Assembly (NCBI GenBank): GCA_038058335.1
Contig: JBBUBI010000028.1
Location: 1-37,252 of the forward strand
DNA from: Patescibacteria group bacterium
Lineage (GTDB): Bacteria > Patescibacteriota > Microgenomatia > Levybacterales > UBA12049
Direction: 5' to 3'
Length of the DNA stretch: 37,252 bases
The first letter of the stretch is position 1. Every line of letters begins with the position of its first letter. This document shows, in pieces, positions 2,687 through 37,252 of the stretch. The position numbers and the translations under genes are program-made. Below the pieces are notes generated by a model, which made no database searches, was not told the origin of the DNA, and was given only the letters and a program-made list of their open reading frames with translations.

Positions 2687-2695
2687 ATTTTAACA
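2687..2695 (-). promoter_or_regulatory. extended -10 box (TGTTAAAAT) for the XRE gene
   Basis: Minus-strand TGTTAAAAT lies 9 nt upstream of the ATG at 2677. No SD in between. Confidence 0.45.
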
Positions 2696-2741
2696 AATTT
2701 CCTTTCGTATCGCTAAGTACCTTCACCTTCAAAGGAGAATT

Positions 2742-2750
2742 TGCTATAAT
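2742..2750 (+). promoter_or_regulatory. extended -10 box (TGCTATAAT) for the 2758 ORF; predicts a leaderless mRNA
   Basis: Perfect TGnTATAAT, with 7 nt between the hexamer and the ATG at 2758. It is divergent from the XRE promoter. Confidence 0.5.
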
Positions 2751-2757
2751 ATCCGCC

Positions 2758-3243
2758 ATGCAACCACTCGAAGCAAGAAATACAAATATTGAAATGCATC
2801 CGGAAAGAAGAGTTGCCGAAATAGCGAAAGATTTTTTTATTGAAGCTAGCATTGGCAATCCTTTTTCGTTAGTAGGACAAGCCGCACGTATCGCAACCAG
2901 ATGCAGATACCTTGGTGTTAGGCCAGATTTTTTGGGGACAGACTTGCTAAGCCAACCGGACTTGATTTCAGAAATTCAAATAAAGGGAACTGAAATTCAT
3001 TCAGGGAGAAATATAAAACCTATCGGAGTGGGACAATTAAGGGATACAATAGAAATCGACTTCGCTTTTGCACAGGAATTGCTAATCCTAGATGCTGCTG
3101 AGCTAGAAAAATTATATACCCGTTTTGAGAATACTCCACCATCGCCGCAAAAAGAAGCCGAGCTGCTAGGCGAGGCTCAAAAAGCAATCGCATATGCAAA
3201 GCTACGCTTAAATTACATACGAGAAGACAAAGAAACATTTTAA
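2758..3243 (+). CDS. hypothetical protein (161 aa from the internal ATG)
   Basis: ORF-track ORF 2683..3243. The first 25 codons overlap the divergent XRE promoter and start, so I prefer ATG 2758 (MQPLEARN...), which sits just after a TGCTATAAT box. No recognisable motif. Confidence 0.5.
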   Translation: MQPLEARNTNIEMHPERRVAEIAKDFFIEASIGNPFSLVGQAARIATRCRYLGVRPDFLGTDLLSQPDLISEIQIKGTEIHSGRNIKPIGVGQLRDTIEIDFAFAQELLILDAAELEKLYTRFENTPPSPQKEAELLGEAQKAIAYAKLRLNYIREDKETF

Positions 3244-3334
3244 TAAATTATTATGGCAGTTCATCTTGAGCGAACAGACCAGTCCAGCATTATCAGAATC
3301 CCAGACTGAATCTATTTATCTTAAGAATTGTATA

Positions 3335-3343
3335 TGGTAGTAT
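3335..3343 (+). promoter_or_regulatory. extended -10 box (TGGTAGTAT) for pilB; leaderless geometry
   Basis: The hexamer ends 6 nt before the A of ATG 3350. No SD. Confidence 0.45.
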
Positions 3344-3349
3344 AAATAT

Positions 3350-5032
3350 ATGCTTCTGCCCGATGCTCAGTTAAAAGATCTACTACTTCATTCAGGTGCA
3401 ATTACTGAACAGGTCATTACTGAATTACAAAAATTTGCGAGCGATTCCCGAATCTCTCTTCAGGAAGCCACAATAGAAAAAGATGCAGTTTCGGATGAAA
3501 AATTGGGTCTTCTTATTGCAAATTACCTAAATTATCCTTTCGTATCTTTATCAAAAATTACAATTCCGGACCATATATTCGGAATCGTTCCAGAAAGACT
3601 AGCAAGAAAGCATAAGATAATTCCTTTTGCGCAGGATCAAGATGGATTAAAGCTTGCAATGGCAAGTCCAAATGATATTTCGATCCAGGAGATGATCGCA
3701 AAAAAAACTCAATCGAAGATTTCGCCTTATCTTGCTACGGAAAGGGATATTGACAATACACTGCAGTTATACAGAAAAGATTTGAAACAATCATTTGATG
3801 AGCTTCTCCAAAATGAAATAAACAAAAACACAGACGCCATAGGAGATGCCCCGATTGCAAAAATAATGGACTTACTTATTAAATATGCTTATCGGGATAA
3901 GGCATCTGACATTCATATCGAACCGGAAGAAAAAGATCTTTTGGTACGTTTTCGAATAGACGGAATTCTGCATGACGTACTATACCTTGATAAAAAGCTG
4001 CACGACCGGATCATGACCCGCATTAAAATACTTTCAAGACTGAGAACGGATGAGCATCTAAGCGCTCAGGACGGAAAGATGAGGGTTGTTGTTGATGATG
4101 AAAATTTGGATCTTCGTATTTCCATGATACCAATTGTCGAAGGCGAAAATGCAGTGCTAAGACTTCTGTCATCGCATTTTCGCCAATTCTCCCTTACTGA
4201 CCTGGGCATGAACGGCAAGGATTTAGAAAAAGTTAACGCAGCAATAAATAAATCATACGGAATGATCCTTTCCACCGGACCTACTGGAAGCGGAAAAACA
4301 ACGAGCATTTATGCAATTCTTAAAATTCTAAATACGAGAGAAAAAAATATTACGACCATAGAGGATCCGGTCGAATATAGAATTCAGGGAGTAAATCAAA
4401 TTCAAGTTAATCCGAAAACAAATCTTACATTTGCTGACGGGTTAAGAAGTATTCTCAGGCAAGATCCAAATGTTATTTTTGTCGGAGAGATAAGAGATAA
4501 TGAAACCGCAGGAATTGCCGTAAATGCTGCGCTAACTGGCCATTTAGTTGTCTCCACACTTCATACGAATGACGCGGCTACTGCTCTACCCAGACTTATA
4601 GATATGAAGGTTGAGCCCTTCCTGGTCGCATCAACTGTAAATATCATAATAGCCCAAAGGCTTGTAAGGAAAATTTGTGAGTCATGTAAGGTACAATTGA
4701 CAATTAAACACCATGGCATTGGAGGAATTATCCCTCAGGAAATGACTCTTAAGCATTTTGGTACTACAGAAAATATAACTATTTTCAAAGGACAGGGATG
4801 TAAAATCTGTCACTTTACCGGCTATATGGGCAGGATTGGAATTTTTGAAATTCTTGAAATGACTGAGCTGATTAAAAAACTTATTGCTGAAAAACATGAC
4901 TCCGATATAATTATGAAAGCAGCAATCGAAGAGGGAATGACCACCATGCTTGATGACGGACTGGATAAAATTGTCAAAGGATTCACGACGTTTGAGGAAG
5001 TGCTTAGAGTCACAAAAGTTGGAGGAGTATGA
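3350..5032 (+). CDS. pilB: type IV pilus assembly ATPase (PilB/GspE family)
   Basis: Walker A GPTGSGKTT, Walker B-like VIFVGEIRD, His box GHLVVSTLHTND and a tetracysteine motif (CESCK...CKICHFTGY). The N-terminal region resembles the GspE-N domain. Confidence 0.93.
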   Translation: MLLPDAQLKDLLLHSGAITEQVITELQKFASDSRISLQEATIEKDAVSDEKLGLLIANYLNYPFVSLSKITIPDHIFGIVPERLARKHKIIPFAQDQDGLKLAMASPNDISIQEMIAKKTQSKISPYLATERDIDNTLQLYRKDLKQSFDELLQNEINKNTDAIGDAPIAKIMDLLIKYAYRDKASDIHIEPEEKDLLVRFRIDGILHDVLYLDKKLHDRIMTRIKILSRLRTDEHLSAQDGKMRVVVDDENLDLRISMIPIVEGENAVLRLLSSHFRQFSLTDLGMNGKDLEKVNAAINKSYGMILSTGPTGSGKTTSIYAILKILNTREKNITTIEDPVEYRIQGVNQIQVNPKTNLTFADGLRSILRQDPNVIFVGEIRDNETAGIAVNAALTGHLVVSTLHTNDAATALPRLIDMKVEPFLVASTVNIIIAQRLVRKICESCKVQLTIKHHGIGGIIPQEMTLKHFGTTENITIFKGQGCKICHFTGYMGRIGIFEILEMTELIKKLIAEKHDSDIIMKAAIEEGMTTMLDDGLDKIVKGFTTFEEVLRVTKVGGV

Positions 5033-6081
5033 AAACAGAAAATATCACATTATCAAATAACGATCAATTAAATCTAATTAGTACATTTTCTACATTGATC
5101 AATGCAGGAATTCCTATTCTGGAAACAGTAGAATCTCTCCTAGAAGGCTCCAAGGGAAACATGAGAAAAATCCTAGAGTCAACGAGTGAAGATCTTGTTC
5201 AAGGAAAACCTCTTCATGTGTGTTTTTCAAAATTTCCTGGAGTTTTCGGAAAAGTAACGATAAATATTATTAAAGCTTCTGAAGAGGCGGGAACGCTTGA
5301 TGTAATACTAAAAGACTTGAGGAATCAGGTCCAGAAAGACATGGAATTTGTCGACAGAATAAAATCCGTCCTAATGTATCCGCTTATTATTTTGATAGTT
5401 TTTTTGGGCGTACTCCTTGTAATTCTTGTCGTAGTAATTCCAAAAATCGCTATTGTATTTGCGCAACTGAAGGCCGAGCTTCCTCTACCCACAAAAATTA
5501 TGATTTTTGCATCCAATGCAATCCTACACAACACAATTCCACTTATAGCTATACTTATAGCTTTAGGTGTTGGTTTCTATTTCTCATACAAAGTCCAGAG
5601 AGCAACAGTTCTCCGCGTGCTTTACTCACTTCCAATTGTTTCAACTATCGTTAAGGAGATTGATCTGACGCGATTTTTCAGGAGTATGTATCTATTGCTT
5701 AACTCAGGAATTATTATTACATCAGCCTTAGAGCTAGCAAAAGACGTAGTAATGCGAAAAGACATAGCACAATCAATAGCCTATGCGCAAGAATCTGTCC
5801 TGGCAGGCCGAAGACTCTCGGACGCATTCAAAGACAAAAAGCATCTTTACTCGGGCATCATGATCAAGATCATTGAAGCAGGGGAGAAAACAGGAACTCT
5901 AGACAAATCCATGCAAGACATGTCTGACTATATGGATTATCAAGTCTCAGGCATGCTCAAGACCCTTACCAGTCTTCTCGAACCAATAATGCTTGTTCTT
6001 ATGGCAACTTTGGTAGGGGGGATGATGATGTCAATTATCTCGCCTATTTACGGGATGATCAGCAATGTAGGCGGTAGATAA
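5029..6081 (+). CDS. pilC: type IV pilus inner-membrane platform protein (PilC/GspF family)
   Basis: 350 aa with two GspF-like repeats and three TM segments. ATGA overlap with pilB. Confidence 0.88.
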   Translation: MKTENITLSNNDQLNLISTFSTLINAGIPILETVESLLEGSKGNMRKILESTSEDLVQGKPLHVCFSKFPGVFGKVTINIIKASEEAGTLDVILKDLRNQVQKDMEFVDRIKSVLMYPLIILIVFLGVLLVILVVVIPKIAIVFAQLKAELPLPTKIMIFASNAILHNTIPLIAILIALGVGFYFSYKVQRATVLRVLYSLPIVSTIVKEIDLTRFFRSMYLLLNSGIIITSALELAKDVVMRKDIAQSIAYAQESVLAGRRLSDAFKDKKHLYSGIMIKIIEAGEKTGTLDKSMQDMSDYMDYQVSGMLKTLTSLLEPIMLVLMATLVGGMMMSIISPIYGMISNVGGR

Positions 6082-6083
6082 AA

Positions 6084-6575
6084 GTGAAAAAAACAATTGA
6101 ATCACAGCATGGAACTTCGCTTCTTGAACTCATTATGTTCATGGCTATTGGCTTACTTCTATTCGGATTTGTGACATTTAATTTTGTAAGCTTTCAACAA
6201 AAAACTTCTATTTCCACCTCTATTGACACCCTAATCTCAGATTTCAGCAGTCAACAAACAAAAGCAATGATCGGCGCAGAAAGCAGCGGCACGGGGAATA
6301 GTTACGGAGTATATTTTCAATCAGATAGATATATCCTTTTTGCAGGCTCTGCTTATTCCGGTGCAAATCCAACTAATTTTACTGTGATGCTGGATCCAAA
6401 CATAATTTTTACTGATATTACTTTTCCCGGAAGCGTATTGATTTTTTCACAATTATCAGGTGAAATAGCCGGATTTGCAGACGGAAGTAACACAATCGCA
6501 TTGCAAAGCTCACAGGGATCTGAAAAAAAAACACTTACAATTAATAAATACGGTGTGATAACTGAAATAAATTAA
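6084..6575 (+). CDS. prepilin-type minor pilin / pseudopilin
   Basis: GTG start. Class III signal ...SQHG|TSLLELIMFMAIGLLL with Glu at +5. Confidence 0.75.
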   Translation: MKKTIESQHGTSLLELIMFMAIGLLLFGFVTFNFVSFQQKTSISTSIDTLISDFSSQQTKAMIGAESSGTGNSYGVYFQSDRYILFAGSAYSGANPTNFTVMLDPNIIFTDITFPGSVLIFSQLSGEIAGFADGSNTIALQSSQGSEKKTLTINKYGVITEIN

Positions 6576-6577
6576 AT

Positions 6578-11255: not shown

Positions 11256-11285
11256 TTGACAAGATGTTTTAATTATGTGAATAAT
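11256..11285 (+). promoter_or_regulatory. sigma70-like promoter of pilin copy 1 (TTGACA-N18-AATAAT)
   Basis: TTGACA at 11256..11261 and AATAAT at 11280..11285. Only 10 nt separate the -10 box from the ATG, with no SD. Confidence 0.55.
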
Positions 11286-11295
11286 TAATACATAC

Positions 11296-11802
11296 ATGAA
11301 AACAAATCTGCCCAGATTAGTTAAGACTCAATCTTCAAAAGGTTTTACTCTTATTGAGCTTCTCGTCGTTATCGGTATCCTAGCAATTCTTCTCTCGATC
11401 GTTCTTATCGCCATTAACCCAGCAAGACAATTTGGTCAGGCAAATGACACAAAAAGACAAAGTGCTGTAACTCAAATACTTAATGCAGTCGGAGCATATC
11501 ATGCTGATAATAAGGGGCAATTGCCACTTAATATTCCAGTATCACCAGCAGCAGCAGCACAAATAGCATGGGACGGTGTTACACCAAATGCACCAGGTAA
11601 TATCTGCGCTGCTCTATTGGGAACTGCTGGTGATGGATATATCCCTGCTCTACCAGTAGATCCAACACTTACTGGAGGAGACATTACTAATTGCGCAGCT
11701 TTATATGCTACTGGATACTTTATAGTGCAGGATGCAAACGGAAGAGTAACGGTATCAGCTCCAAGCTCAGAAGTTACCACTCCAATTACGATAACCCGAT
11801 AA
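11296..11802 (+). CDS. type IV major pilin, copy 1
   Basis: ...SSKG|FTLIELLVVIGILAILLSIVLIAINP, a canonical class III signal and alpha-1 helix. Two Cys (NICAAL...TNCAAL) could form a C-terminal disulfide loop. Confidence 0.9.
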   Translation: MKTNLPRLVKTQSSKGFTLIELLVVIGILAILLSIVLIAINPARQFGQANDTKRQSAVTQILNAVGAYHADNKGQLPLNIPVSPAAAAQIAWDGVTPNAPGNICAALLGTAGDGYIPALPVDPTLTGGDITNCAALYATGYFIVQDANGRVTVSAPSSEVTTPITITR

Positions 11803-12227: not shown

Positions 12228-12740
12228 ATGAAAAGAAATCTGCCCAGATTAGTTAAGACTCAATCTTCAAAGGGTTTTACATTAATTGAACTTCTAGTCG
12301 TAATCGGAATTTTAGCAATCCTTCTCTCTATTGTTCTTATAGCCATTAACCCAGCAAGACAATTTGGTCAGGCAAATGACACAAAAAGACAAAGCGCTGT
12401 AACTCAAATACTTAATGCAGTCGGAGCATATCATGCTGATAATAAAGGGCAATTGCCACCTAATATTCCAGTAGGAGTCGTTGGAACCAATGAGGTTCAA
12501 ATCGCATGGGATGGTATTACTGCAAATGCACCAGGTAATATTTGCTCTGCTCTATTGGGAACTGCTGGTGATGGATATATCCCTGCTCTACCAGTAGATC
12601 CAACGCTTACTGGAGGAGACATTACTAATTGCTCAATTGCATATGCTACTGGATACTTTATAGTACAGGATGCAAACGGAAGAGTAACAGTAATTGCTCC
12701 AAGCTCAGAAGTTACCACTCCAATTCAAATAACCAGATAA
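12228..12740 (+). CDS. type IV major pilin, copy 2 (variant central region)
   Basis: The N-terminal ~77 aa are almost identical to copy 1. The central segment differs (PNIPVGVVGTNEVQIAWDGITANA vs LNIPVSPAAAAQIAWDGVTPNA). Confidence 0.9.
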   Translation: MKRNLPRLVKTQSSKGFTLIELLVVIGILAILLSIVLIAINPARQFGQANDTKRQSAVTQILNAVGAYHADNKGQLPPNIPVGVVGTNEVQIAWDGITANAPGNICSALLGTAGDGYIPALPVDPTLTGGDITNCSIAYATGYFIVQDANGRVTVIAPSSEVTTPIQITR

Positions 12741-14838: not shown

Positions 14839-14928
14839 ATTAAAGTTATCTTAATGTTAAAAGATAAACTCAGTCAATTATGCAAATAATAATCAAAAGA
14901 TATCAGTCTAGACCAATTTAAAAAAATG

Positions 14929-15000
14929 AGCGGGAAACGGGGATCGAACCCGCGACCTTCTCGTTGGCAACGAGACGCTCTACCACTGAGCTACTCCCGC
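14929..15000 (-). tRNA. tRNA-Gly(GCC)
   Basis: Reverse complement GCGGGAGTAGCTCAGTGGTAGAGCG TCTCG TTGCCAA CGAGA AGGTC GCGGGTTCGATCCCCGT TTCCCGC T folds as a cloverleaf with U73. No CCA encoded. Confidence 0.9.
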
Positions 15001-15093
15001 ACTTCGTCACTTCGTTCCTCAGTGCAAGCTTTTTATAATAACACAATTGCTTATTCTGAGCAAAATCAGTTTACCCTGAGCAAAGTGAATGAG

Positions 15094-15166
15094 TGCCGAG
15101 AGTGTGAGTCGAACACACATGGCCTGTTCTTCAGACAGGTGCCTTGACCACCTTGGCTATCTCGGC
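15094..15166 (-). tRNA. tRNA-Phe(GAA)
   Basis: Reverse complement GCCGAGA TA GCCAAGGTGGTCAAGGC A CCTGT CTGAAGA ACAGG CCAT GTGTG TTCGACT CACAC TCTCGGC A. Atypical D-arm. No CCA encoded. Confidence 0.8.
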
Positions 15167-15192
15167 TTGCTTGCATTTCATTTGTCAAAATG

Positions 15193-15265
15193 TGGGCGAT
15201 GCAGGTCTCGAACCCGCGACATTTGCGATGTAAACGCAACGCTCTACCAACTGAGCTAATCGCCC
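15193..15265 (-). tRNA. tRNA-Val(TAC)
   Basis: Reverse complement GGGCGAT TA GCTCAGTTGGTAGAGC G TTGCG TTTACAT CGCAA ATGTC GCGGG TTCGAGA CCTGC ATCGCCC A. No CCA encoded. Confidence 0.9.
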
Positions 15266-15288
15266 TTAACTATAACATAGAGTGTTTG

Positions 15289-15375
15289 TACCGAGGACAG
15301 GACTTGAACCTGCACGCCTTATTTAAGGGCACAAGAACCTCAATCTTGCGTGTCTACCAATTTCACCACCTCGGC
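15289..15375 (-). tRNA. tRNA-Leu(GAG)
   Basis: Reverse complement GCCGAGGTGGTGAAATTGGTAGACACG CAAGA TTGAGGT TCTTG with a long variable arm, then GCAGGTTCAAGTCCTGT CCTCGGT A. No CCA encoded. Confidence 0.88.
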
Positions 15376-15384
15376 AGGATAAAC

Positions 15385-15393
15385 ATTATAGCA
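15385..15393 (-). promoter_or_regulatory. extended -10 box (TGCTATAAT) inside the tRNA array, upstream of tRNA-Leu(GAG)
   Basis: Minus-strand TGCTATAAT. The predicted start is about 3 nt upstream of the mature 5' end at 15375. It overlaps a perfect 15-nt palindrome, tagcaaaatttgcta (15389..15403). Confidence 0.4.
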
Positions 15394-15408
15394 AAATTTG
15401 CTAAATTG

Positions 15409-15491
15409 TGCCCGAGGGGAGACTTGAACTCCCATGCTCTTGCGAGCACTAACTCCTGAAGCTAGCGCGTCTACCGTTTCGCCACCCGGGC
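15409..15491 (-). tRNA. tRNA-Leu(CAG)
   Basis: Reverse complement GCCCGGGTGGCGAAACGGTAGACGCG CTAGC TTCAGGA GTTAG with a long variable arm, then GGGAGTTCAAGTCTCCC CTCGGGC A. No CCA encoded. A TGATAAAAT box lies about 20 nt upstream. Confidence 0.88.
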
Positions 15492-15635
15492 TTTTATGAA
15501 TGTGCCTTCAAATTTTATCAGAAATAAAACTATATTAAAAGGATTTGAGAATAAGCTTATTAGCCTCGGGAACTTGACCCAGATCCAATCGGGGTTGACA
15601 AAAAGTTGCTGATTGTGCAAGATATAAACACTTGC

Positions 15636-18598: not shown

Positions 18599-18604
18599 AT
18601 TATA
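18599..18604 (-). promoter_or_regulatory. -10 box TATAAT; leaderless geometry for the 18592 ORF
   Basis: Minus-strand TATAAT, with 6 nt to the G of GTG at 18592. Confidence 0.4.
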
Positions 18605-20798: not shown

Positions 20799-20815
20799 TA
20801 GTTTAAGCTACTGAA

Positions 20816-23421: not shown

Positions 23422-23430
23422 TGATATACT
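23422..23430 (+). promoter_or_regulatory. extended -10 box (TGATATACT); leaderless geometry for the 23437 ORF
   Basis: Same 9-mer as upstream of tyrS. 6 nt to the G of GTG at 23437. Confidence 0.4.
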
Positions 23431-23436: not shown

Positions 23437-23667
23437 GTGACTAGATTTCAGCAGGCTACTAAAGCAGTCAGAGATATATTGATCAATAATTTTCTCGGAG
23501 GCCTTGCATGGGCAGTAGGAGTAACAATAGGATTTTCCCTTATTATTTTTCTTCTTACAACTGTACTTAAGAACGTAAATTGGATTCCCTTCATAGGCGA
23601 TTTTCTATCAAATCTCACAAGCTATGTACTTTCAAATTTACAAACCAATCCTCAATTGGTAAAATAG
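23437..23667 (+). CDS. small two-TM membrane protein
   Basis: 76-aa ORF with a GTG start and two hydrophobic segments. Confidence 0.5.
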   Translation: MTRFQQATKAVRDILINNFLGGLAWAVGVTIGFSLIIFLLTTVLKNVNWIPFIGDFLSNLTSYVLSNLQTNPQLVK

Positions 23668-23675
23668 TCCCTCAT

Positions 23676-24890
23676 ATGGATAATTCGAAAAATCATCAGC
23701 AGATAGGAAAAGAACAAGATCTATTTACATTCTCTGATCTCGTAGGCTCCGGACTTCCTCTTTTTACACCCAAGGGCACAGTTCTCAAGCGAGTTTTGAA
23801 TACATACATAGATGATCTTCTGCAGAAAGAAGGGTACCAATTTGTGTCTATTCCTCATATCGCAAAAAAAGATTTGTATGAGAAGTCCGGACATCTTGAG
23901 AAATTCTCAGAAGATATGTTTCCCGTGATGAAGGCAAAAGGCAGAGAGTATATGCTAAAACCCGCAAATTGCCCGCACCACATTCAGATTTTTGCCCGAA
24001 AACCATGGTCATATAGAGATATGCCCCAAAGATACGCTGAAAGCACCACTCAGTACAGATCAGAACTCTCAGGCGAGCTTGAGGGACTTGCAAGAGTACT
24101 TTCGCTGACACTCGATGACTCGCATGTGTTTGCAAGGCCTGATCAAGTGCGAGAGGAGTTCAGAAAAGCACTAAGCCTAAACCAGCAGATGCTGAAGGAT
24201 TTCAAGCTTGAAAATTGGATAAGACTCTCAGCTTGGGATCCGAAGGATAAAGCAAAATACTTGGGAGATGAAAAAACCTGGGAGGAAATGCAAAGCCTTA
24301 TGGAAGATATACTTAAAGAACTTAAGATAAATTACAAAAAAGTAGAAGGAGAAGCAGCCTTTTACGGACCCAAGATGGATCTTATGATCACAGACTCTCT
24401 AGGCAAGGAATGGCAGCTTTCAACTATCCAGGTTGATTTCAACCTTCCTGCAAGATTTGAACTTTCCTACGTAGATGAAAATGGTCAGGATCAAAGACCG
24501 GTAATGCTTCATAGAGCAACCTTTGGATCATACGAAAGATTCCTTGCAATGATAATTGAGCATTTTCAAGGAGCTTTTCCGCTTTGGCTCTCTCCAGTAC
24601 AAGCAGTGATTCTTCCGATTGCAGACAGACATGCCGAGAAAGCAAACGAGATCAAAGATACGCTTTTGGAAGCAGGGATTCGGGTTGAGGCAGACAGCAG
24701 ATCAGAAACTCTTCAATCAAAAATTCGGCAGGTGTCTTTACAAAAAGTGCCCTACATGGGTATAATAGGGGACAAAGAAATTGAAACTAAAAGCCTATCT
24801 ATCCGCACGAGGGATGGAAAAGATCTAGGACAATTAGAAATTTCTAAGTTTCTTAATTTAATTAAAGAAGAAATTGATAAAAAGACATAA
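23676..24890 (+). CDS. thrS: threonyl-tRNA synthetase, catalytic plus anticodon-binding domains only
   Basis: From ATG 23676: MDNSKNHQQIGKEQDLFTF... aligns with the start of the class II core of bacterial ThrRS. Zn ligand contexts CPHH, DDSH and LHRA are present. The ORF-track start at 23580 overlaps the upstream gene. A TGGTAAAAT box lies 10 nt upstream of the ATG. Confidence 0.88.
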   Translation: MDNSKNHQQIGKEQDLFTFSDLVGSGLPLFTPKGTVLKRVLNTYIDDLLQKEGYQFVSIPHIAKKDLYEKSGHLEKFSEDMFPVMKAKGREYMLKPANCPHHIQIFARKPWSYRDMPQRYAESTTQYRSELSGELEGLARVLSLTLDDSHVFARPDQVREEFRKALSLNQQMLKDFKLENWIRLSAWDPKDKAKYLGDEKTWEEMQSLMEDILKELKINYKKVEGEAAFYGPKMDLMITDSLGKEWQLSTIQVDFNLPARFELSYVDENGQDQRPVMLHRATFGSYERFLAMIIEHFQGAFPLWLSPVQAVILPIADRHAEKANEIKDTLLEAGIRVEADSRSETLQSKIRQVSLQKVPYMGIIGDKEIETKSLSIRTRDGKDLGQLEISKFLNLIKEEIDKKT

Positions 24891-25708: not shown

Positions 25709-26059
25709 ATGCCAAGAGTAAAACGAGGAGTCGTATCAAGAAGAAAGCACAATAAGCTTCACAGCCTTACAAAGGGATACAGAGGTACCAAGAGTAGACT
25801 GGTTAAGGCTGCAAAAGAAGCAGAGCTTCATGCCAGGTCTTATGCTTATCATGGAAGAAAACTCAAGAAACGAGACTTCAGAACGCTTTGGATTACTCGT
25901 ATTGCAGAAGCGGCCAAAAAGGAAGGCCTGTCATACAGCGTACTCATGAATAAGCTTAGAAAATCCAAAATTGACCTTGACAGAAAAATCTTAAGCGATC
26001 TTGTCACAAACGATCCCGAAGTATTCAAAAAGGTTGTTGACTCAGTTCGAAGCGCCTGA
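25709..26059 (+). CDS. rplT: ribosomal protein L20
   Basis: MPRVKRGVVSRRKHNKLHSLTKGYRG...YAYHGRKLKKRDFRTLWITRI.... Confidence 0.93.
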   Translation: MPRVKRGVVSRRKHNKLHSLTKGYRGTKSRLVKAAKEAELHARSYAYHGRKLKKRDFRTLWITRIAEAAKKEGLSYSVLMNKLRKSKIDLDRKILSDLVTNDPEVFKKVVDSVRSA

Positions 26060-26065
26060 TAGAAT
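26057..26065 (+). promoter_or_regulatory. extended -10 box (TGATAGAAT) overlapping the rplT stop; drives the leader peptide
   Basis: TAGAAT at 26060..26065, with 6 nt to the A of ATG 26072 and no SD. Confidence 0.5.
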
Positions 26066-26071
26066 ATCTTT

Positions 26072-26116
26072 ATGCAAAAGCAAATATTTTTTTCATTTTA
26101 TTTTACCTTCGCTTAG
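26072..26116 (+). CDS. Phe-rich leader peptide (pheM-like), 14 aa
   Basis: ATG CAA AAG CAA ATA TTT TTT TCA TTT TAT TTT ACC TTC GCT TAG translates to MQKQIFFSFYFTFA: 5 Phe in 14 residues. The stop codon lies in the loop of the first hairpin, directly upstream of pheS-pheT. Confidence 0.65.
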   Translation: MQKQIFFSFYFTFA

Positions 26117-26132
26117 GCGAGGGTAGTTTTTT
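26104..26132 (+). terminator. hairpin 1:2 plus U6 (rplT terminator / attenuator segments 1 and 2)
   Basis: taccttcgc (26104..26112) pairs with gcgagggta (26117..26125): 9 bp including one G-U pair, with loop ttag. It is followed by gtttttt. Confidence 0.65.
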
Positions 26133-26143
26133 GCAAAAAATAC

Positions 26144-26190
26144 ACCTTCGCACTTCCGGAAAATTTCGGAAAACAAGCGAGGGTTTTTTT
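26144..26190 (+). terminator. hairpin 3:4 plus U7 (attenuator terminator)
   Basis: accttcgc (26144..26151) pairs with gcgagggt (26177..26184). An inner helix forms between ttccg and cggaa (26154..26158 / 26167..26171). The run then reads ttttttt. Segment 3 has the same sequence as segment 1, so it can also pair with segment 2. Confidence 0.65.
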
Positions 26191-26211
26191 ATTTTAAGGA
26201 GGTATGGATGC

Positions 26212-26400
26212 ATGGGTAAAGAAAATATAGAAAATTCAATGCTTGTAACTAGGGTTATTACTGCTATGAACACATTGATTGACGCGAAGAGAACAAGTCC
26301 GGAGAGCGCTTTACACGAAAAAGCATTGATAAGAGTTGCGGGAATGGCAGCAAACGAATCCGGTGCGATTGAAATAATGTCTAGGCTGCAAGAAGGCTAG
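26212..26400 (+). CDS. hypothetical 62-aa protein between the attenuator and pheS
   Basis: AAGGAGG at 26196..26202, 9 nt upstream of ATG 26212. It reads MGKENIENSMLVTRVITAMNTLIDAKR.... The ORF-track start at 26131 would read through the terminator. Confidence 0.5.
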   Translation: MGKENIENSMLVTRVITAMNTLIDAKRTSPESALHEKALIRVAGMAANESGAIEIMSRLQEG

Positions 26401-26406
26401 TAAGTA

Positions 26407-26415
26407 TGGTATTCT
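26407..26415 (+). promoter_or_regulatory. extended -10 box (TGGTATTCT); leaderless geometry for pheS
   Basis: TATTCT at 26410..26415, with 6 nt to the A of ATG 26422. Confidence 0.35.
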
Positions 26416-26421
26416 TATTTT

Positions 26422-27459
26422 ATGGAAGAAGAGCTTATTGGAATTAAAAATTCTGCGGTTTCGCTGATACTTGAAGCTGTAGATCCCAAAGAAATTGAAG
26501 AGATAAAAATTCAATTTCTTGGACGAAGCGGAAGGCTGACAACTGCGATTAAGGAAATCCCCAAACTTTCCAAAGAAAAAATACCTGATGTAGGAAGACT
26601 TGCCAATGAAGTCAAGAAAACCATTGAAGAAACTCTTGAGGAAAAAGACGCAACTCTAAGACAAATTAAAACTCAAAGAGTAAAAGAAAAAATAGACACT
26701 TCGCTTCCTGGAGTAAAACCCAATATCGGACATCTTCACCCGCTTACTCAGGTTATTTACGACGTTGTAGATGTTTTCAAGAGTCTTGGCTATCAAGCTA
26801 CTGATGGTCCTGAAATAGAAACAGATTATTATAATTTCGAAGCACTTAATATCCCAAAAGATCATCCTGCGCGGGATACGCAACAAACATTTTACCTTGA
26901 TACAAGAAATTCAAAGGTAAATCCAGGAGAAATAATACTCCGAACTCAAACTTCAGCAATGCAAGGAAGAGTTATGGAAAAGACAAAGCCTCCGGTACGG
27001 GTAATAATCCCAGGCAAATGTTTCAGATACGAGCAAGTAGATGCATCACACGGATTTGAGTTTTGGCAAGTTGAAGGATTTTGTGTTGATGAAAATATCA
27101 AGCTGACTGACCTCTTCGGCACTATTGATTATGTACTCCGAAAGCTAATGGGCGAAGATATAAAACTAAAATTTGCCACAACCAACTTTCCATTCGTCGA
27201 GCCGGGAGTTGACACCTATATGGAATGTACTGTTTGCAAAGGAAAGGGCTGTAGCTTCTGCAAGCAGTCCGGATGGAGCGAGATTATGCCGGCCGGCATG
27301 ATACACCCAAACGTGCTAAAAGCTGTAGGCTATGACAGTAAGAAAGTCTCAGGCTTTGCCTTCGCCATCGGGCTTTCAAGACTTGTCACGCTTAGGTATC
27401 AAATGGAAGACCTGCGTCTTTTAATCAATCCGGACTTAAGAATTCTAGAACAATTTTAA
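26422..27459 (+). CDS. pheS: phenylalanyl-tRNA synthetase alpha subunit
   Basis: Class II motifs, for example ...HPARDTQQTFYL...GKCFRYEQVDASHGFEFWQVEG...GFAFAIGLSRL.... Confidence 0.93.
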   Translation: MEEELIGIKNSAVSLILEAVDPKEIEEIKIQFLGRSGRLTTAIKEIPKLSKEKIPDVGRLANEVKKTIEETLEEKDATLRQIKTQRVKEKIDTSLPGVKPNIGHLHPLTQVIYDVVDVFKSLGYQATDGPEIETDYYNFEALNIPKDHPARDTQQTFYLDTRNSKVNPGEIILRTQTSAMQGRVMEKTKPPVRVIIPGKCFRYEQVDASHGFEFWQVEGFCVDENIKLTDLFGTIDYVLRKLMGEDIKLKFATTNFPFVEPGVDTYMECTVCKGKGCSFCKQSGWSEIMPAGMIHPNVLKAVGYDSKKVSGFAFAIGLSRLVTLRYQMEDLRLLINPDLRILEQF

Positions 27460-31782: not shown

Positions 31783-31791
31783 ATTATACCA
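31783..31791 (-). promoter_or_regulatory. extended -10 box (TGGTATAAT) for the PBP gene
   Basis: Minus-strand perfect TGnTATAAT, with 7 nt to the A of ATG 31775. Confidence 0.5.
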
Positions 31792-31830
31792 ATACTAGCC
31801 ACTAGTTGCTAGTCGCTTAGTCACTGGCTA

Positions 31831-31839
31831 TGATATACT
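31831..31839 (+). promoter_or_regulatory. extended -10 box (TGATATACT) for tyrS; leaderless geometry
   Basis: TATACT at 31834..31839, with 6 nt to the A of ATG 31846. It is divergent from the PBP promoter. Confidence 0.5.
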
Positions 31840-31845: not shown

Positions 31846-33009
31846 ATGGATAAAATTGAAGAATTACTGACTTGCGGAGTCGCAAATATCATTCCGAGCA
31901 GGGATAAACTCAAAGAACTTCTTACAACTGATAAGAAATTAAACGTTTATTTCGGAATCGATCCAACTGCCACGCGAATTCATTTAGGCCACGCGGTACC
32001 CCTGCGAGTACTTCAGAAATTTTCAGATCTTGGTCATAATGTAACTTTTCTAATCGGCGACTTTACAGCGCTTATCGGTGACACATCCGACAAAGACACT
32101 GAAAGGCCGGTTCTAACTACCGAGCAGATTGAAAAGAATTTCCAAACTTATAGAGATCAAGCTGAGAAAATTTTGGATTTTTCAAACATCAAAGTCAGAT
32201 ACAATAGCGAGTGGCTCGATAATCTTTCATCAAGAGATTTTATAAAACTTGCTCAGCAGTTTTCGTTTGGCGATTTTGCATCGCGCGAACTTGTCAAAAA
32301 AAGACTTTCTTCATCCAAATACGTAGGGCTCCATGAGGGGCTTTATCCTGCGATGCAAGGATACGACAGCTATTTCCTAGATACCGACGTCCAAATCGGA
32401 GGAACCGACCAAACTTTCAATATGCAGGCAGGAAGAATATTGCAAAAAAACTGGAGAGATAAAGAATCTTATGTACTAGCAACTGAATTCCTTCTCGGAA
32501 CAGACGGAAGAAAAATGAGCAAGACCTGGAACAACGCTATTTGGCTTGAGGATAATCCAAATGAAATGTACGTTAAGATAATGGCGATAAATGATGACCT
32601 GATAATTCCGTATTTTACTCTTGCTACTAACCTAGCATTGACCGCAATTGAAAATATAAAAAGCGAATTAGACAGAGGAGGAAGTTTGCTTAATGCAAAA
32701 AAAGAACTCGCTAGACAAATTATAAAAGAGCTCCACGGAGAAAAAGATGCGGAAGATGCAGAGAATAATTTCACCAAAACCCCAGAAGCGCAAATCGTGA
32801 CAGTTGGACATGAAAAAGCAAGTTTAATTGACGCTTTGATATATACAAATCTTGCACAAAGCAAGTCTGATGCAAAAAGATTAATTGAACAGGGTGGAGT
32901 GTCAATTGATGGGAAGGTCAAAAGCGATCCAAGTGAAATTCTGGATCTGGAAAAAGAAAAGGTTATAAAAGTTGGAAAATTCAAATCTGCAAAACTAAAA
33001 TCTTCGTGA
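31846..33009 (+). CDS. tyrS: tyrosyl-tRNA synthetase
   Basis: HIGH-type motif (RIHLGH), KMSKT motif and a C-terminal S4-like domain (KSDAKRLIEQGGVSIDGKV). Confidence 0.9.
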   Translation: MDKIEELLTCGVANIIPSRDKLKELLTTDKKLNVYFGIDPTATRIHLGHAVPLRVLQKFSDLGHNVTFLIGDFTALIGDTSDKDTERPVLTTEQIEKNFQTYRDQAEKILDFSNIKVRYNSEWLDNLSSRDFIKLAQQFSFGDFASRELVKKRLSSSKYVGLHEGLYPAMQGYDSYFLDTDVQIGGTDQTFNMQAGRILQKNWRDKESYVLATEFLLGTDGRKMSKTWNNAIWLEDNPNEMYVKIMAINDDLIIPYFTLATNLALTAIENIKSELDRGGSLLNAKKELARQIIKELHGEKDAEDAENNFTKTPEAQIVTVGHEKASLIDALIYTNLAQSKSDAKRLIEQGGVSIDGKVKSDPSEILDLEKEKVIKVGKFKSAKLKSS

Positions 33010-33015
33010 TAGAAT
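33007..33015 (+). promoter_or_regulatory. extended -10 box (TGATAGAAT) overlapping the tyrS stop
   Basis: Same 9-mer and same spacing as at 26057. 6 nt to the A of ATG 33022. Confidence 0.45.
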
Positions 33016-33021: not shown

Positions 33022-33132
33022 ATGGAAATATTTAGAAAGCACCAGTGGGTTTGGAAAATAATTGTAGTCATCGCAACTGTTGCACTTATCGCTACATCAT
33101 TCCTCCCATCTCTGTCTCTGCTTTTTCAATAA
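33022..33132 (+). CDS. candidate 36-aa single-TM peptide (not in the ORF track)
   Basis: ATG 33022 to TAA 33130..33132 encodes MEIFRKHQWVWKIIVVIATVALIATSFLPSLSLLFQ. It is preceded by the TGATAGAAT box and ends 6 nt before recG. Confidence 0.4.
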   Translation: MEIFRKHQWVWKIIVVIATVALIATSFLPSLSLLFQ

Positions 33133-33138
33133 TTATTT

Positions 33139-35205
33139 ATGAACGTAAATACGCCTATCGCAGGAATCGGCGGAATCTACAAGAAGTATGCCGGAAGACT
33201 TGAAAAGCTTGGAATAAAAAAGCTAGAAGATTTTCTTTTTCACATTCCATTCAGATATGAAGACTTTTCTCTGATATCAAAAATCAGTAGCGTCCAAGCA
33301 GGGGAGATAGTCACGATTCAAGGAGAAATTACGGAAATTAAAAATGAATACACAAGAAAATGGAAAAATCTGCAGAAAGCAAAGGTTGCAGATGAAACTG
33401 ATGAGATTGATATCATTTGGTTTAATCAGCCATATATTCCGAAGACTCTAAAAAAAGGCGATCGTGTATCCCTATCAGGCAAAGTTAAATTCGCTCTCAA
33501 TAAGCTCGTCCTCGAAACTCCGGAATTTGAAGTTATAAACGGAAATACAATCCATACCGGTCGTCTCGTGCCAATCTATCCTGAGACACGAGGAATATCT
33601 TCGAAATGGATAAGAAGACAAGTCTATAAGTTACTTCATGAGTCTGATCTCATCTCCATGGATACAATGCCAAATGAGATACTAACGAAAAACTCTTTTA
33701 TGAAACTCGCAGATGCCTTAAATAAAATTCATTTTCCTAACTCTCTTGATGAAGTAGGGGAGGCGAGAAAGAGACTTTCGTTTGACGAACTCTTTATGCT
33801 TCAGCTTAAAGGAATCATAAAAAAAGAAGATTGGAAGAAAAAAACCGTAACAAATAGTTTTAAGATTGTTGATTTTCAAAATAAAATAGAAGAATTTTTG
33901 GAAAGCCTTCCGTTTGAACTAACCAATGCCCAAAAAAAAGCAGTTGAGGAAATTCTTAAGGATCTTAAATCAAAAAAGCCCATGAATAGGCTTCTTGAAG
34001 GAGACGTAGGAAGCGGGAAAACTGTCGTTGCCGCAATTGCGATGCATATCGCTTGCCTCAATGGATTTCAGTCAGTCATAATGGCACCGACTGAAATCCT
34101 AGCAAATCAACATTTCGATACTATCTCCAAACTTCTTACTCCTTTGGGAGTTACCGTCGCTTTAAAAACAGGAAGTATCAAGTATAAAGTAGCAAGTATT
34201 AAGTATAAAAAAGAAAAAATACATAATACAAACTACATAATAAAAAATACTGATATTCTTATTGGAACTCACGCGGTTTTATCAGATAAAATAAACTTTG
34301 ATAAGCTTGGACTTGTAATTATTGATGAACAACAAAGATTTGGAGTAAGACAAAGATCTATTATTAGAGGCAAAGGCAAAAGTCCCCATCTTCTCACTAT
34401 GACCGCAACTCCAATCCCCAGAACAATAGCACTTACTTTGTATGGAGATCTGGATCTCTCATTTCTCGATGAAATGCCTCATGGAAGAAAGATTGTCAAA
34501 ACATGGCTTACGCCTGAAGAGAAGAGAAGCGGAGCATACCAATGGATCGAAAAAGAACTTAAGAAAAATAAATCTCAAGCATTTATAATTTGTCCGTTTA
34601 TTGAGGAGTCTGAGACTATGACTACAGTAAAAGCCGCGACAAAAGAATTTGAAATACTTAAAACCAAGATTTTCCCGAAGCTCAAGCTTGCGCTTTTACA
34701 TGGAAAGCTCAAAAGTAAAGAAAAGGAACAAATTCTTACAGATTTCAAGAATAAAAAATATGACATCTTGGTCGCAACTCCTGTTGTTGAAGTAGGCATC
34801 GATATTCCGAACGCAACTATTATGGTCATCGAAGCATCCGAGCGGTTTGGACTCTCTCAGCTTCATCAGCTTCGGGGAAGAGTGGGGAGGAGTAATATGC
34901 AATCATATTGCTTGTTATTTACTGAGGCAAAAAACACAAAAACACTAGAAAGACTTAGAGGAATGGAAAGAATCCATATCGGAGCAGAACTTGCCGAGCT
35001 TGACCTAAGGCTCAGGGGGCCGGGTGAAATATTTGGAACAACACAGCACGGAATTGCCGAACTTAAAATCGCATCATTTTCCGATTTACCTCTGATTCAA
35101 AAAGCAAAAAAAGAAGCAGAGGATATTTTTCCAAAACTAAAATCATATCCAAAATTATCTGAAAAATTGCAATCAGAAAACCTCTCCCAAATCTCCCCTG
35201 ATTAA
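33139..35205 (+). CDS. recG: ATP-dependent DNA helicase RecG
   Basis: Wedge-like N-terminus and helicase motifs GDVGSGKT, DEQQRFG, TATPIPRT and QLRGRVGR. Confidence 0.92.
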   Translation: MNVNTPIAGIGGIYKKYAGRLEKLGIKKLEDFLFHIPFRYEDFSLISKISSVQAGEIVTIQGEITEIKNEYTRKWKNLQKAKVADETDEIDIIWFNQPYIPKTLKKGDRVSLSGKVKFALNKLVLETPEFEVINGNTIHTGRLVPIYPETRGISSKWIRRQVYKLLHESDLISMDTMPNEILTKNSFMKLADALNKIHFPNSLDEVGEARKRLSFDELFMLQLKGIIKKEDWKKKTVTNSFKIVDFQNKIEEFLESLPFELTNAQKKAVEEILKDLKSKKPMNRLLEGDVGSGKTVVAAIAMHIACLNGFQSVIMAPTEILANQHFDTISKLLTPLGVTVALKTGSIKYKVASIKYKKEKIHNTNYIIKNTDILIGTHAVLSDKINFDKLGLVIIDEQQRFGVRQRSIIRGKGKSPHLLTMTATPIPRTIALTLYGDLDLSFLDEMPHGRKIVKTWLTPEEKRSGAYQWIEKELKKNKSQAFIICPFIEESETMTTVKAATKEFEILKTKIFPKLKLALLHGKLKSKEKEQILTDFKNKKYDILVATPVVEVGIDIPNATIMVIEASERFGLSQLHQLRGRVGRSNMQSYCLLFTEAKNTKTLERLRGMERIHIGAELAELDLRLRGPGEIFGTTQHGIAELKIASFSDLPLIQKAKKEAEDIFPKLKSYPKLSEKLQSENLSQISPD
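34174..34215 (+). repeat. in-frame 21-nt tandem duplication inside recG
   Basis: agtatcaagtataaagtagca followed by agtattaagtataaaaaagaa, encoding SIKYKVA and SIKYKKE. Confidence 0.7.
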
Positions 35206-35208
35206 ATA

Positions 35209-35237
35209 TTGACATACATCTAATCGTTGGTTATGCT
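35209..35237 (+). promoter_or_regulatory. promoter TTGACA-N17-TATGCT upstream of the HD-domain gene
   Basis: TTGACA at 35209..35214 and TATGCT at 35232..35237, with 10 nt to ATG 35248. Confidence 0.5.
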
Positions 35238-35247
35238 TTAGCGGATA

Positions 35248-35991
35248 ATGACAACCTTAGAAAAATCCCCAGCTTACCGACCTCCAATTCCGGAAAACTT
35301 AAGAACAGAATATGAAAGAGGACTCGCAAGAATTCTGAGATGGGAACATGGAATTTTAAGCTCCAGCACGTAAGAATCCGATTTGGATCATGTAAGAGAT
35401 ATGCTTCTTATTCTTGAAGATATCGGACATCAATTTATACATATTCCAAGTGAAGTAAATTTCACTACAGTTTCGCATATGATTTATATCCATGATGCAG
35501 GAGAAATTTTGGCAGGCGATTTGACGCATTCACATCCAAATTACGATGAAGTCAGGCCAAGAGTTAAAAGGAGGGAGGTCGCTGCTTTCAGATTATTATC
35601 AAGATCTTTGGAAGATGAACCAACAAAAACTGCCGTGAGGGATTTGTATAGAAGAGTGCACGCTAAATCTCCTGAAGATAAGGAAGCACAGCTTACGGAT
35701 TACATTGATAAAGTTCAAGCCGTGAGATTTGGTCTTATCAATGTTTTCCCACCTAGCACTATGAAAAATCCAGAGAGAAGACGAATACAGCTGAATCACA
35801 CAATGACCACTCTTTTCAAACCAGCAAATGGATTGGTCAACTCACTTGACTCTTCTTATTCGAGAGCAGAAGCAATAGGACTCATAAAAGAAGAGTTGAG
35901 GAATTTTTTAGTTCAGGGATATAAAAAACACGAAATTCAACCATATCTTGATTTATTCTTGCAAACTTCGGTAAACGGAGCTTCTAAATAA
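35248..35991 (+). pseudogene. HD-domain hydrolase (YfbR-like 5'-nucleotidase pattern) interrupted by an in-frame TAA
   Basis: ATG 35248 ...LARILRWEHGILSSST, TAA at 35371..35373, then ESDLDHVRDMLLI...IHDAGEILAGDL... in the same frame. The RW-x10-ExxxxH and HD...GD motifs span the stop. Confidence 0.6.
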
Positions 35992-36019
35992 AATTGTTGC
36001 AAGTAAAGCTAGATTGAGG

Positions 36020-36025
36020 TAAAAT
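36020..36025 (+). promoter_or_regulatory. -10 box TAAAAT; leaderless geometry for rpmF
   Basis: 6 nt to the A of ATG 36032. TTGCAA lies 17 nt upstream as a possible -35 box. Confidence 0.45.
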
Positions 36026-36031
36026 AGGCAA

Positions 36032-36256
36032 ATGCCACAAGAACCAAAGAAAAGACATTCAAGGCAAAGACAAGGGAAGAGACGACATTCTATAAATTTT
36101 GGAATTCCTCACGGAGTACTCTGTGAGAATTGCGGTGCAAATAATATGCCCCACGTTATCTGCAAGAAATGCGGATTTTATCAGGGAAGGCAAGTTTTGA
36201 ATCTTGAAAAGAAAGTAAAGAATAAAGATGAAGAACCCGCTGGACCCCAGGCATAA
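36032..36256 (+). CDS. rpmF: ribosomal protein L32 with a C-terminal extension
   Basis: MPQEPKKRHSRQRQGKRR... plus a zinc ribbon CENCG...CKKCG. Confidence 0.88.
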   Translation: MPQEPKKRHSRQRQGKRRHSINFGIPHGVLCENCGANNMPHVICKKCGFYQGRQVLNLEKKVKNKDEEPAGPQA

Positions 36257-36581
36257 GAAAAGACAAAAGACAGTAGAGGATCTTTTCAAAAACAGTTTTT
36301 TCAAACAATCAGCAGGCGAAGGCGCAAAGCAGGTAAGACTTAATTTGGATGAAATTGACGAAAGTATTAAAAAAGCTGCGCCTGAATTTCCAATTGATAA
36401 GATCAATAGAGTTGATTTGGCAATACTGAGACTTGCGGTATTTGAACTTATGATTGAAAAAAAAGAACCTCCAAAGGTAATCGTCGATGAAGCAATCGAA
36501 CTTGCCAAGGAATACGGCGGAGACAAAAGTCCTGGATTTGTAAATGGCGCATTGGGCAAAATAGTAGGAAATTTAAAATGA
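36228..36581 (+). CDS. nusB: NusB-like transcription antitermination factor (short)
   Basis: ...RVDLAILRLAVFELMIEKKEPPKVIVDEAIELAKEYGGDKSPGFVNGALGKIV. Overlaps rpmF by 29 nt. Confidence 0.8.
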   Translation: MKNPLDPRHKKRQKTVEDLFKNSFFKQSAGEGAKQVRLNLDEIDESIKKAAPEFPIDKINRVDLAILRLAVFELMIEKKEPPKVIVDEAIELAKEYGGDKSPGFVNGALGKIVGNLK

Positions 36582-36623
36582 TCCTTCGACCTTGCTCAGG
36601 ATCATAGTGAGCTAATCGAATCT

Positions 36624-37252
36624 ATGACTAAACTACCTGATTTTAAAAATAAAGATCTTTTTGAACAGGCTTTTATACACAGATCTTATCTTAATGAGAC
36701 AAAAGAAGCACTTTCTTCAAATGAAAGGCTTGAGTTTCTGGGAGACAGCGTTCTTTCATTTGTAGTTTCTAAATATTTATATTCAAAATATCCAAATTTT
36801 GACGAAGGCATTCTGACCAATCTACGCGCAACTCTCGTAAACACAATCACGCTTGCTCAAGTCGCCAGAGAGCTTAATCTGGGCGATCTCCTTAAGCTCT
36901 CAAAAGGCGAAGAGGAGTCAAAAGGAAGAGAAAATACAAGCCTTCTCGCTGACTCGTTTGAAGCATTTATAGGCGCTTTGTTTTTGGATCAGGGAGCCGA
37001 GGCGGTATCAGATTTCTTAACCGCCGTACTTCTTCCCAAAGCAGAGTTTTTTCTGTCAAAAAAGGCCTTGAAGGATTCAAAAAGTCTGCTTCAGGAATCA
37101 ATACAAGCCAAAAATCAAACCTCACCCGTTTATAAAGTCATTAAGGAGGAAGGACCACCTCACAAGAAGCTATTTACTGTAGGCGCGTATCTTGACGGAA
37201 AATTGCTGGGACAGGGAACAGGCAAGTCAAAACAAGAAGCTGAAAAAGTCGC
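36624..37252 (+). CDS. rnc: ribonuclease III; 3' end runs off the window
   Basis: Own translation from ATG 36624: MTKLPDFKNKDLFEQAFIHRSYLNE...NERLEFLGDSVLSFVVS... (RNase III signature), then the start of the dsRBD ...PVYKVIKEEGPPHKKLFTV.... No stop in the window, so it is absent from the ORF track. Confidence 0.9.
   Translation, partial: MTKLPDFKNKDLFEQAFIHRSYLNETKEALSSNERLEFLGDSVLSFVVSKYLYSKYPNFDEGILTNLRATLVNTITLAQVARELNLGDLLKLSKGEEESKGRENTSLLADSFEAFIGALFLDQGAEAVSDFLTAVLLPKAEFFLSKKALKDSKSLLQESIQAKNQTSPVYKVIKEEGPPHKKLFTVGAYLDGKLLGQGTGKSKQEAEKV

Follow-up and report, generated by a model that had tools for sequence, protein, structure and literature searches.

Boxes at a fixed distance from start codons suggest widespread leaderless mRNAs in a groundwater Levybacteria genome

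The DNA analysed here is a contig of 37,252 nucleotides (nt) (JBBUBI010000028.1 of assembly GCA_038058335.1; contig C28 in our numbering, hereafter the window) from a Candidatus Levybacteria, an ultra-small groundwater bacterium of the Candidate Phyla Radiation (CPR/Patescibacteria, Microgenomates). In this genome, a box of the form TGnTAnnnT recurs at a fixed distance of 6 nt before start codons, especially those of the first genes of transcription units. We consider it very probable, from sequence evidence, that these boxes belong to sigma-70-type extended -10 promoters placed directly at start codons and that they generate widespread leaderless or near-leaderless mRNAs. This reading had been proposed in an initial annotation of the window, and it is supported by a sharp peak at one offset, a sigma-70 geometry, the position before unit-first genes and the conservation at orthologous starts, which together predict the transcription start sites. 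The mechanism is known but the lineage is apparently unreported for it, so that the gain is one of scope, not of principle.

The assembly comprises 850,808 bp in 74 contigs, with 38% GC and an estimated completeness of 96.5%, and the DNA runs containing the window sequence are groundwater metagenomes. Searches of RNA runs retrieved no run with this organism; one run, of unknown kind, held only fragments of a relative's pilin, 90-96% identical.

Position of the box relative to start codons

Counted as a word, TGnTAnnnT is not enriched in the window (106 matches versus 96±9 after shuffling) and the question is therefore one of position rather than frequency. Positions were tabulated on a simple set of 931 genes, which together span 92% of the genome and were obtained as the longest open reading frames (ORFs) scored by codon usage, 879 starts of which entered the box statistics. 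Spacers are written so that N6 denotes 6 nt between the end of the hexamer and the start codon. Two controls were used: an internal one, made of 6040 in-frame ATG, GTG and TTG codons within genes, and a shuffled one, in which each 60-nt upstream region was shuffled.

The extended box lies at N6 before 78 of the 879 starts (8.9%) and before 0.0% of the internal codons, with 1.7±1.3 matches in the shuffles. For the hexamer TAnnnT alone, the same spacing is found at 156 starts (17.7%), versus 0.9% of the internal codons and 31.9±5.6 matches in the shuffles. The peak is also obtained genome-wide without any gene call: an ATG follows TGnTAnnnT at spacer 6 in 101 cases, compared with about 33 at the remaining spacers, or about 20 if only those in frame are taken, and the counts of ATG after TATAAT reach 62, 40 and 37 at spacers 6, 7 and 8 over a background of about 15. 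The initial annotation had asked for this genome-wide comparison and had named a lack of enrichment as the result that would speak against it; what emerges is a sharp peak at the very offset that it had described.

We then considered the 150 nt upstream of 557 genes that are candidates for the first position in a transcription unit. Extended boxes number 69 at N6, 28 at N7-8 and 39 at N9-12, and farther than N12 they fall to 0.8-1.4 per position, for 0.73 expected. Since boxes are near background beyond N12, most recognisable promoters of this genome abut the start codon. From the excess over shuffles, the predicted leaderless class (N6-8) takes in about 21% of the genes overall and about 29% of those that come first in their unit. 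Another 9% or so of unit-first genes have their box at N9-12, for predicted leaders of 3-6 nt. A class of genes with leaders of about 3-4 nt had already been noticed in the window, and the 39 extended boxes at N9-12, where about 3 would be expected, extend it to the whole genome.

Promoter anatomy and gene context

The 156 N6 sites were aligned on the start codon and give the consensus T(-15) G(-14) n T A t A A T (-12 to -7); 102 of the sites have T-15 and 87 have G-14. The triplet TTG occurs exactly at -35 in 33 sites (about 21%), compared with 0-7 (about 3) at the other offsets from -50 to -19, which corresponds to the canonical 17-nt spacer; it is also more frequent at this position in genes with a box than in unit-first genes without one (Fisher p=1.4e-6). 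Position -1 is mostly a pyrimidine (G in just 5 sites) and position +1 is a purine in 149. The start codons comprise 133 ATG, 16 GTG and 7 TTG (85%, 10% and 4.5%, respectively). In the start-site maps of 49 bacteria, the distribution of transcription start sites has its centre 7 bp downstream of the -10 element (PMC12641261), a distance that corresponds to a 6-nt spacer. Read in this way, the N6 sites have the textbook sigma-70 numbering, with a predicted +1 on the A of ATG. They resemble known extended -10 (TGn) sigma-70 promoters, in which TG at -15/-14 immediately precedes TAnnnT and the -35 element is weak or optional. Indeed, the promoter itself is ordinary and its distinctive property is the fixed register to the start codon.

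The box is unevenly distributed among gene contexts. At N6 it precedes 24% of divergent genes, 36% of genes after gaps of 16-40 nt and 25% of genes after gaps of 41-100 nt, but only 4% of overlapping genes, in agreement with the proposal that it marks the first genes of operons. In several cases, the stop codon of the upstream gene lies inside the -10 box of the next one: the TGA of TGATAGAAT is the stop of rplT (26057-26059) and also that of tyrS (33007-33009), and 10 more such sites are found genome-wide. Moreover, 4 of the 6 genes with a 12-nt gap read TGATATAAT or TGATATACT, N6 and the start codon. The embedding of stop codons in boxes indicates that promoters are packed into gaps of 7-14 nt. 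Overlaps of 4 nt (ATGA-type) are found in 59 gene pairs.

Similar boxes precede tRNA genes. They were looked for in the tRNA region of the window (14928-15520, minus strand) and genome-wide, and -10-like boxes were found 8-11 nt before the mature 5' end in 13 of 41 tRNA genes (7 of them extended), a distance that predicts pre-tRNA leaders of just 2-5 nt. Leaderless tRNAs, transcribed from the +1 of the tRNA and independent of RNase P, were considered and rejected, because the boxes stand at 8-11 and not at 6 nt and because an RNase P RNA is present (C47:9765-10146; 86 bits, under the Rfam cut-off of 100). The TGTTATAGT box that the initial annotation had cited as a caution, at 15271-15279, is in fact located at 15269-15277 (minus strand), 3 nt before tRNA-Val(tac).

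Shine-Dalgarno use and translation apparatus

Shine-Dalgarno (SD) 4-mers precede 4-7% of the divergent or 16-100-nt-spaced genes, which is below the 18% observed at internal control codons; this agrees with the lack of SD that the initial annotation had noticed at many first-in-operon genes. Clear SD sequences are present at 2056, 10402 and 26212, but overall SD 4-mers precede just 25% of overlapping genes, compared with 18% in the control. SD use is weak across the genome.

The anti-SD and ribosomal protein S1 were examined, as the initial annotation had suggested. No 16S gene was found in the assembly itself. In relatives of the same family or order, 7 of 8 16S tails read GGATCACCTCCTTTCT, the canonical anti-SD, and the eighth locus ends before that point. 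An S1 homologue is encoded at C21:1740-2819, behind a strong AAGGAGG SD of its own; it is short, with 359 aa and 3-4 S1 domains. The S1 protein of Escherichia coli has six domains. The anti-SD is therefore conventional as far as relatives can tell, and S1 is present but reduced in length.

Conservation among relatives and across the phylum

Comparison was made with 80 species-level loci bearing tyrS (57-69% protein identity, 1.3 Mb in total), the closest labelled Candidatus Levybacteria or Levyibacteriota and the farther ones Gottesman-, Woese- or Amesbacteria. Among the 62 species whose tyrS has an aligned ATG start, about 40 carry TGnTATACT or TGnTATAAT at exactly N6, and their more distant upstream sequences are unrelated. 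A box at N6-12 is likewise found before 37 of 46 pheS, 24 of 32 PBP1A and 35 of 46 rpmF orthologues, and before just 2 of 51 orthologues of the operon-internal pheT. The rplT orthologues have an SD in 20 of 33 cases and the box is not conserved there. In five tyrS loci labelled Gottesmanbacteria (L023, L042, L046, L066 and L073), TGnTATAG is followed by AAGGAGG and then by 5-7 nt before the ATG. The start of tyrS has alternated during evolution between a predicted leaderless form and an SD-bearing mini-leader.

When the 80 Microgenomates loci are pooled, an ATG follows the extended box in 145 cases at N6 and 97 at N7, over a background of about 45. We also surveyed 150 evenly sampled Patescibacteria genomes by comparing N6 with N15, an in-frame control spacing. 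A reversed-pattern control was dropped as too lenient (11 matches in the genome under study, versus 20-33 at other spacers) and N15 was used instead. The median N6/N15 ratio is 2.1, with values of 2 or more in 84 of the 150 genomes and a significant excess of N6 (p<0.001) in 64. The ratio is near 1 in 22 genomes, which cluster by family, and the present genome, with 4.1, ranks 13th of 151. The layout is consequently common but not universal in Patescibacteria. Across Levybacteria and other Microgenomates, it is inherited. On a wider scale, we lean slightly towards the view that leaderless or near-leaderless initiation is an old, lineage-wide trait of most Patescibacteria/CPR, which would then form the third such major clade after Actinobacteria and Deinococcus-Thermus.

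Proposed mechanism and alternative explanations

We propose that TGnTAnnnT would serve as the extended -10 element of the housekeeping (sigma-70-type) promoter, at -15 to -7 counted from the initial A or G of the start codon. RNA polymerase would begin transcription at the first base of AUG or GUG and release an mRNA without 5' untranslated region (UTR) and without SD. Ribosomes would bind the 5'-terminal AUG directly, as established for the leaderless mRNAs of other bacteria. Genes with a box at N9-12 would have leaders of 3-6 nt, too short for an SD, and operon-internal genes would be expressed through overlap or coupling, a minority of them via SD pairing with a conventional anti-SD. The exact start sites and the loading of ribosomes are what we infer from the motif, its geometry, its gene context and its conservation.

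Several points weigh against this proposal or restrict it. Both a box within 12 nt and an SD are lacking from about 60% of unit-first genes, so that leaderless initiation would be a large class and not the whole story; upstream of the boxless genes, the sequence is merely A-rich with a T at -1. The gene set consists of crude longest-ORF calls, which makes the percentages approximate. With a canonical anti-SD in relatives and an S1 homologue present, the translation machinery is without obvious specialisation. Finally, it is possible that initiation takes place 1-2 nt away from the A.

This last point leads to the nearest alternative, according to which the boxes are true promoters but transcription begins a few nt before the start codon, yielding leaders of 1-5 nt that are not strictly leaderless. 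The distance from the -10 element to the start site varies by ±1-2 nt in all bacteria, the N7-8 (28 extended boxes) and N9-12 (39) sites are real classes, and the boxes of tRNA genes stand 8-11 nt before the mature 5' end. However, the dominant class forms one sharp N6 peak, with a pyrimidine at -1 and a purine at +1, in the canonical register for a +1 on the A. In addition, an SD-less leader of 1-5 nt functions as a leaderless one, and this alternative, which we regard as unlikely, would refine the leaderless reading and not replace it. Alternatively, the AT-rich box could be a translation signal carried by leadered mRNAs, that is, a non-SD site for the ribosome or S1 about 10 nt upstream of the start (cf. 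group B of GeneMarkS-2), with no promoter involved. The weak SD use, the presence of an S1 homologue and the general A/T-richness upstream of starts would all fit. But a translation signal should also occur at operon-internal genes, and yet the N6 box is found at 4% of overlapping genes and 2 of 51 pheT. It would need neither TG at -15/-14 nor TTG exactly 17 nt further 5', the sites conform to the textbook TGnTATAAT consensus, and tRNA genes have this box upstream as well, all of which makes this explanation highly improbable.

One could also suspect an artefact of the AT-rich genome, of the stop codons (TAA, TAG, TGA) that bound the longest ORFs, or of over-extended starts. Words resembling a -10 box are common, as the 106 matches for 96 expected in the window illustrate, and the in-frame spacers N0 and N9 are slightly raised, as predicted from stops upstream of longest ORFs. 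Nevertheless, the N6 peak persists without gene calls, 78 sites are seen where shuffles give 1.7, the in-frame N15 spacing gives 24 matches against 101, and the box is conserved at orthologous starts. Furthermore, A is found at -13 in just 60 of the 156 sites and -10 is mostly T, so that TGA, TAA and TAG stops do not account for the motif. The stop-codon artefact was rejected on the gene-call-free peak, the N15 control and the base composition at -13 and -10, and we attribute a negligible probability to an artefact of any of these kinds.

Comparison with known leaderless systems

Leaderless expression is well known in Actinobacteria and Deinococcus. According to Lomsadze et al. (2018; PMC6028130), group C of GeneMarkS-2 comprises genomes with a Pribnow box 6-8 nt before operon-first starts, in which 25-50% of operons are predicted to be leaderless and the other genes use a ribosome binding site; the group contains mainly Actinobacteria (90%) and Deinococcus-Thermus (97%), mostly with high GC. 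On this description, the genome studied here shares the box position and the unit-first context, and its predicted leaderless class of about 29-36% of unit-first genes can be set beside that range. It differs by its affiliation to CPR/Patescibacteria, its 38% GC, the dominance of the extended TGn form, the very sharp N6 spacing and the weak SD use elsewhere.

Leaderless transcriptomes have been mapped experimentally, as cited in the same paper, in Mycobacterium tuberculosis, M. smegmatis, Corynebacterium glutamicum, Streptomyces coelicolor and Deinococcus deserti (PMC6028130). As described there, more than 25% of transcripts begin at the start codon, with a 5' AUG or GUG and a -10 box about 6-8 nt upstream, a layout that matches the present one. 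The mapped cases are founded on differential RNA sequencing (dRNA-seq) and proteogenomics, whereas ours draws on sequence geometry, context and conservation. The leaderless set predicted here includes housekeeping genes for aminoacyl-tRNA synthetases, ribosomal protein L32, PBP1A and the pilus ATPase. We found no literature report of leaderless expression in Patescibacteria/CPR, although a mention may exist in the Nanosynbacter lyticus transcriptome paper (PMID 35975994) or in the GeneMarkS-2 supplement. The start-site set of N. lyticus, the sole CPR set that we met in the literature, was derived indirectly from coverage.

If our reading is correct, leaderless-rich expression would extend to AT-rich, highly reduced genomes in which SD pairing is minor and promoters are packed onto upstream stops. 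The Phe-rich 14-codon ORF ahead of pheS would be a case of a regulatory leader peptide that is itself made from a leaderless RNA, and single genes would toggle between box-N6-ATG and an SD mini-leader, as in the tyrS of Gottesmanbacteria. This bears on translation initiation in extremely reduced bacteria with trimmed ribosomes and would widen the debate on ancestral leaderless initiation by a large, deep-branching phylum. Genetic work on Patescibacteria, now emerging, could also use the 20-nt module TGnTAtaaT-N6-ATG as a minimal expression cassette.

Box sites in the window

All twelve combinations of box, spacer and start listed in the initial annotation are present in the sequence where it had placed them, two of them being weak (20804 and rnc); they are given in Table 1 with four further promoters. 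Pfam agrees with the gene names pilB, pilC, pheS, pheT, PBP1A, tyrS, rpmF, rnc, infC and XRE regulator, and additionally assigns thrS, recG, nusB, an HD-domain protein, DUF5660 and DUF5665 in the window.

Table 1. Boxes and predicted promoters of the window, with the genes that they precede
Box or promoter	Position	Strand	Spacer and start	Gene	Remark
TGCTATAAT	2742-2750	+	N7, ATG 2758	161-aa hypothetical	predicted leaderless
TGTTAAAAT	2687-2695	-	9 nt, ATG 2677	XRE/HTH_3 regulator	predicted leader ~3 nt
TGGTAGTAT	3335-3343	+	N6, ATG 3350	pilB (T2SSE ATPase)	
TTGACA-N18-AATAAT	11256-11298	+	10 nt, ATG 11296	pilin	predicted leader ~3-4 nt
TATAAT	18599-18604	-	N6, GTG 18592	210-aa hypothetical	
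TAAGCT	20804-20809	+	N6, ATG 20816	DUF5660 protein	weak instance
TTGACA-N16-TATAAT	23064-23037	-	8 nt, ATG 23028	510-aa protein	predicted leaderless or 1-2-nt leader
TGATATACT	23422-23430	+	N6, GTG 23437	76-aa DUF5665 membrane protein	ORF 23437-23667
TGGTAAAAT	23657-23678	+	10 nt, ATG 23676	thrS	predicted leader ~3-4 nt
TGATAGAAT	26057-26065	+	N6, ATG 26072	14-codon Phe-rich ORF	TTGACT 17 nt upstream
TGGTATTCT	26407-26415	+	N6, ATG 26422	pheS	
TGGTATAAT	31783-31791	-	N7, ATG 31775	PBP1A (transglycosylase + transpeptidase)	
TGATATACT	31831-31839	+	N6, ATG 31846	tyrS	
TGATAGAAT	33007-33015	+	N6, ATG 33022	36-aa transmembrane ORF	ORF 33022-33132
TAAAAT	36020-36025	+	N6, ATG 36032	rpmF (ribosomal protein L32)	TTGCAA 17 nt upstream
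TGAGCTAAT	36608-36616	+	N7, ATG 36624	rnc	doubtful instance

The promoter of the XRE regulator is divergent from that of the 161-aa protein, for which no Pfam family was matched and no orthologue was found among the fetched relative loci. The second pilin copy has an identical promoter sequence upstream of its ATG at 12228. The DUF5660 instance lies 17 nt past the stop of the upstream gene and just one orthologue was available for comparison. For thrS, the box overlaps the stop codon of the DUF5665 gene, and TTTACA lies 17 nt 5' of the hexamer. For the 510-aa gene, which the initial annotation had placed among those with about 3-4 nt of leader, the spacer is 8 nt and the predicted leader is that of Table 1. 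At rnc, the reported sequence is indeed present, but its hexamer is GCTAAT and does not match TGnTAnnnT. The instance is doubtful because a box at N6-8 is found in just 8 of 58 orthologues and because the gene follows nusB, after which it is probably operon-internal.

Start corrections, small genes and the putative pheS leader

Gene finders that score SD sequences or retain the longest ORF would misplace starts in metagenome-assembled CPR genomes; in the window, the four longest-ORF starts at 2683, 23580, 26131 and 31802 are probably too long. The shift of the thrS start from 23580 to 23676, argued for in the initial annotation, is supported, since the longer ORF would overlap the DUF5665 gene; the latter is real, with a Pfam match at E=1e-12. 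The shift of the PBP1A start from 31802 to 31775 is equally supported, by the box that 24 of 32 orthologues have 6-12 nt upstream of their aligned start. The two other shifts proposed, from 2683 to 2758 and from 26131 to 26212, are plausible.

Small real genes would also be missed, such as the 76-aa DUF5665 gene and the 36-aa ORF at 33022, which is below the usual length cut-offs. This 36-aa ORF (MEIFRKHQWVWKIIVVIATVALIATSFLPSLSLLFQ) lies between tyrS and recG and encodes one transmembrane helix; no Pfam family matched it. The peptide is kept in at least 15 of 40 relatives, every copy having TAnnnT 6-7 nt before the ATG, and this joint conservation directly supports the box-adjacent ATG as the translation start.

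Downstream of rplT, the Phe-rich ORF is followed by two terminator-like hairpins, one at 26103-26126 with a T-run and the other at about 26146-26190. An SD-led ORF of 62 aa (26212-26400) comes after the hairpins, and pheS is next with its own box, N6 and ATG. As a whole, 26057-26425 looks like a pheS attenuator with a putative leaderless leader peptide.

The 70-nt divergent spacer between PBP1A and tyrS contains, at 31792-31830, repeats of the CTAGT/GCTAG type (…ACTAGCCACTAGTTGCTAGTCGCTTAGTCAC…). Like repeats are found upstream of tyrS in the three closest relatives (L001-L003) and may represent a shared operator.

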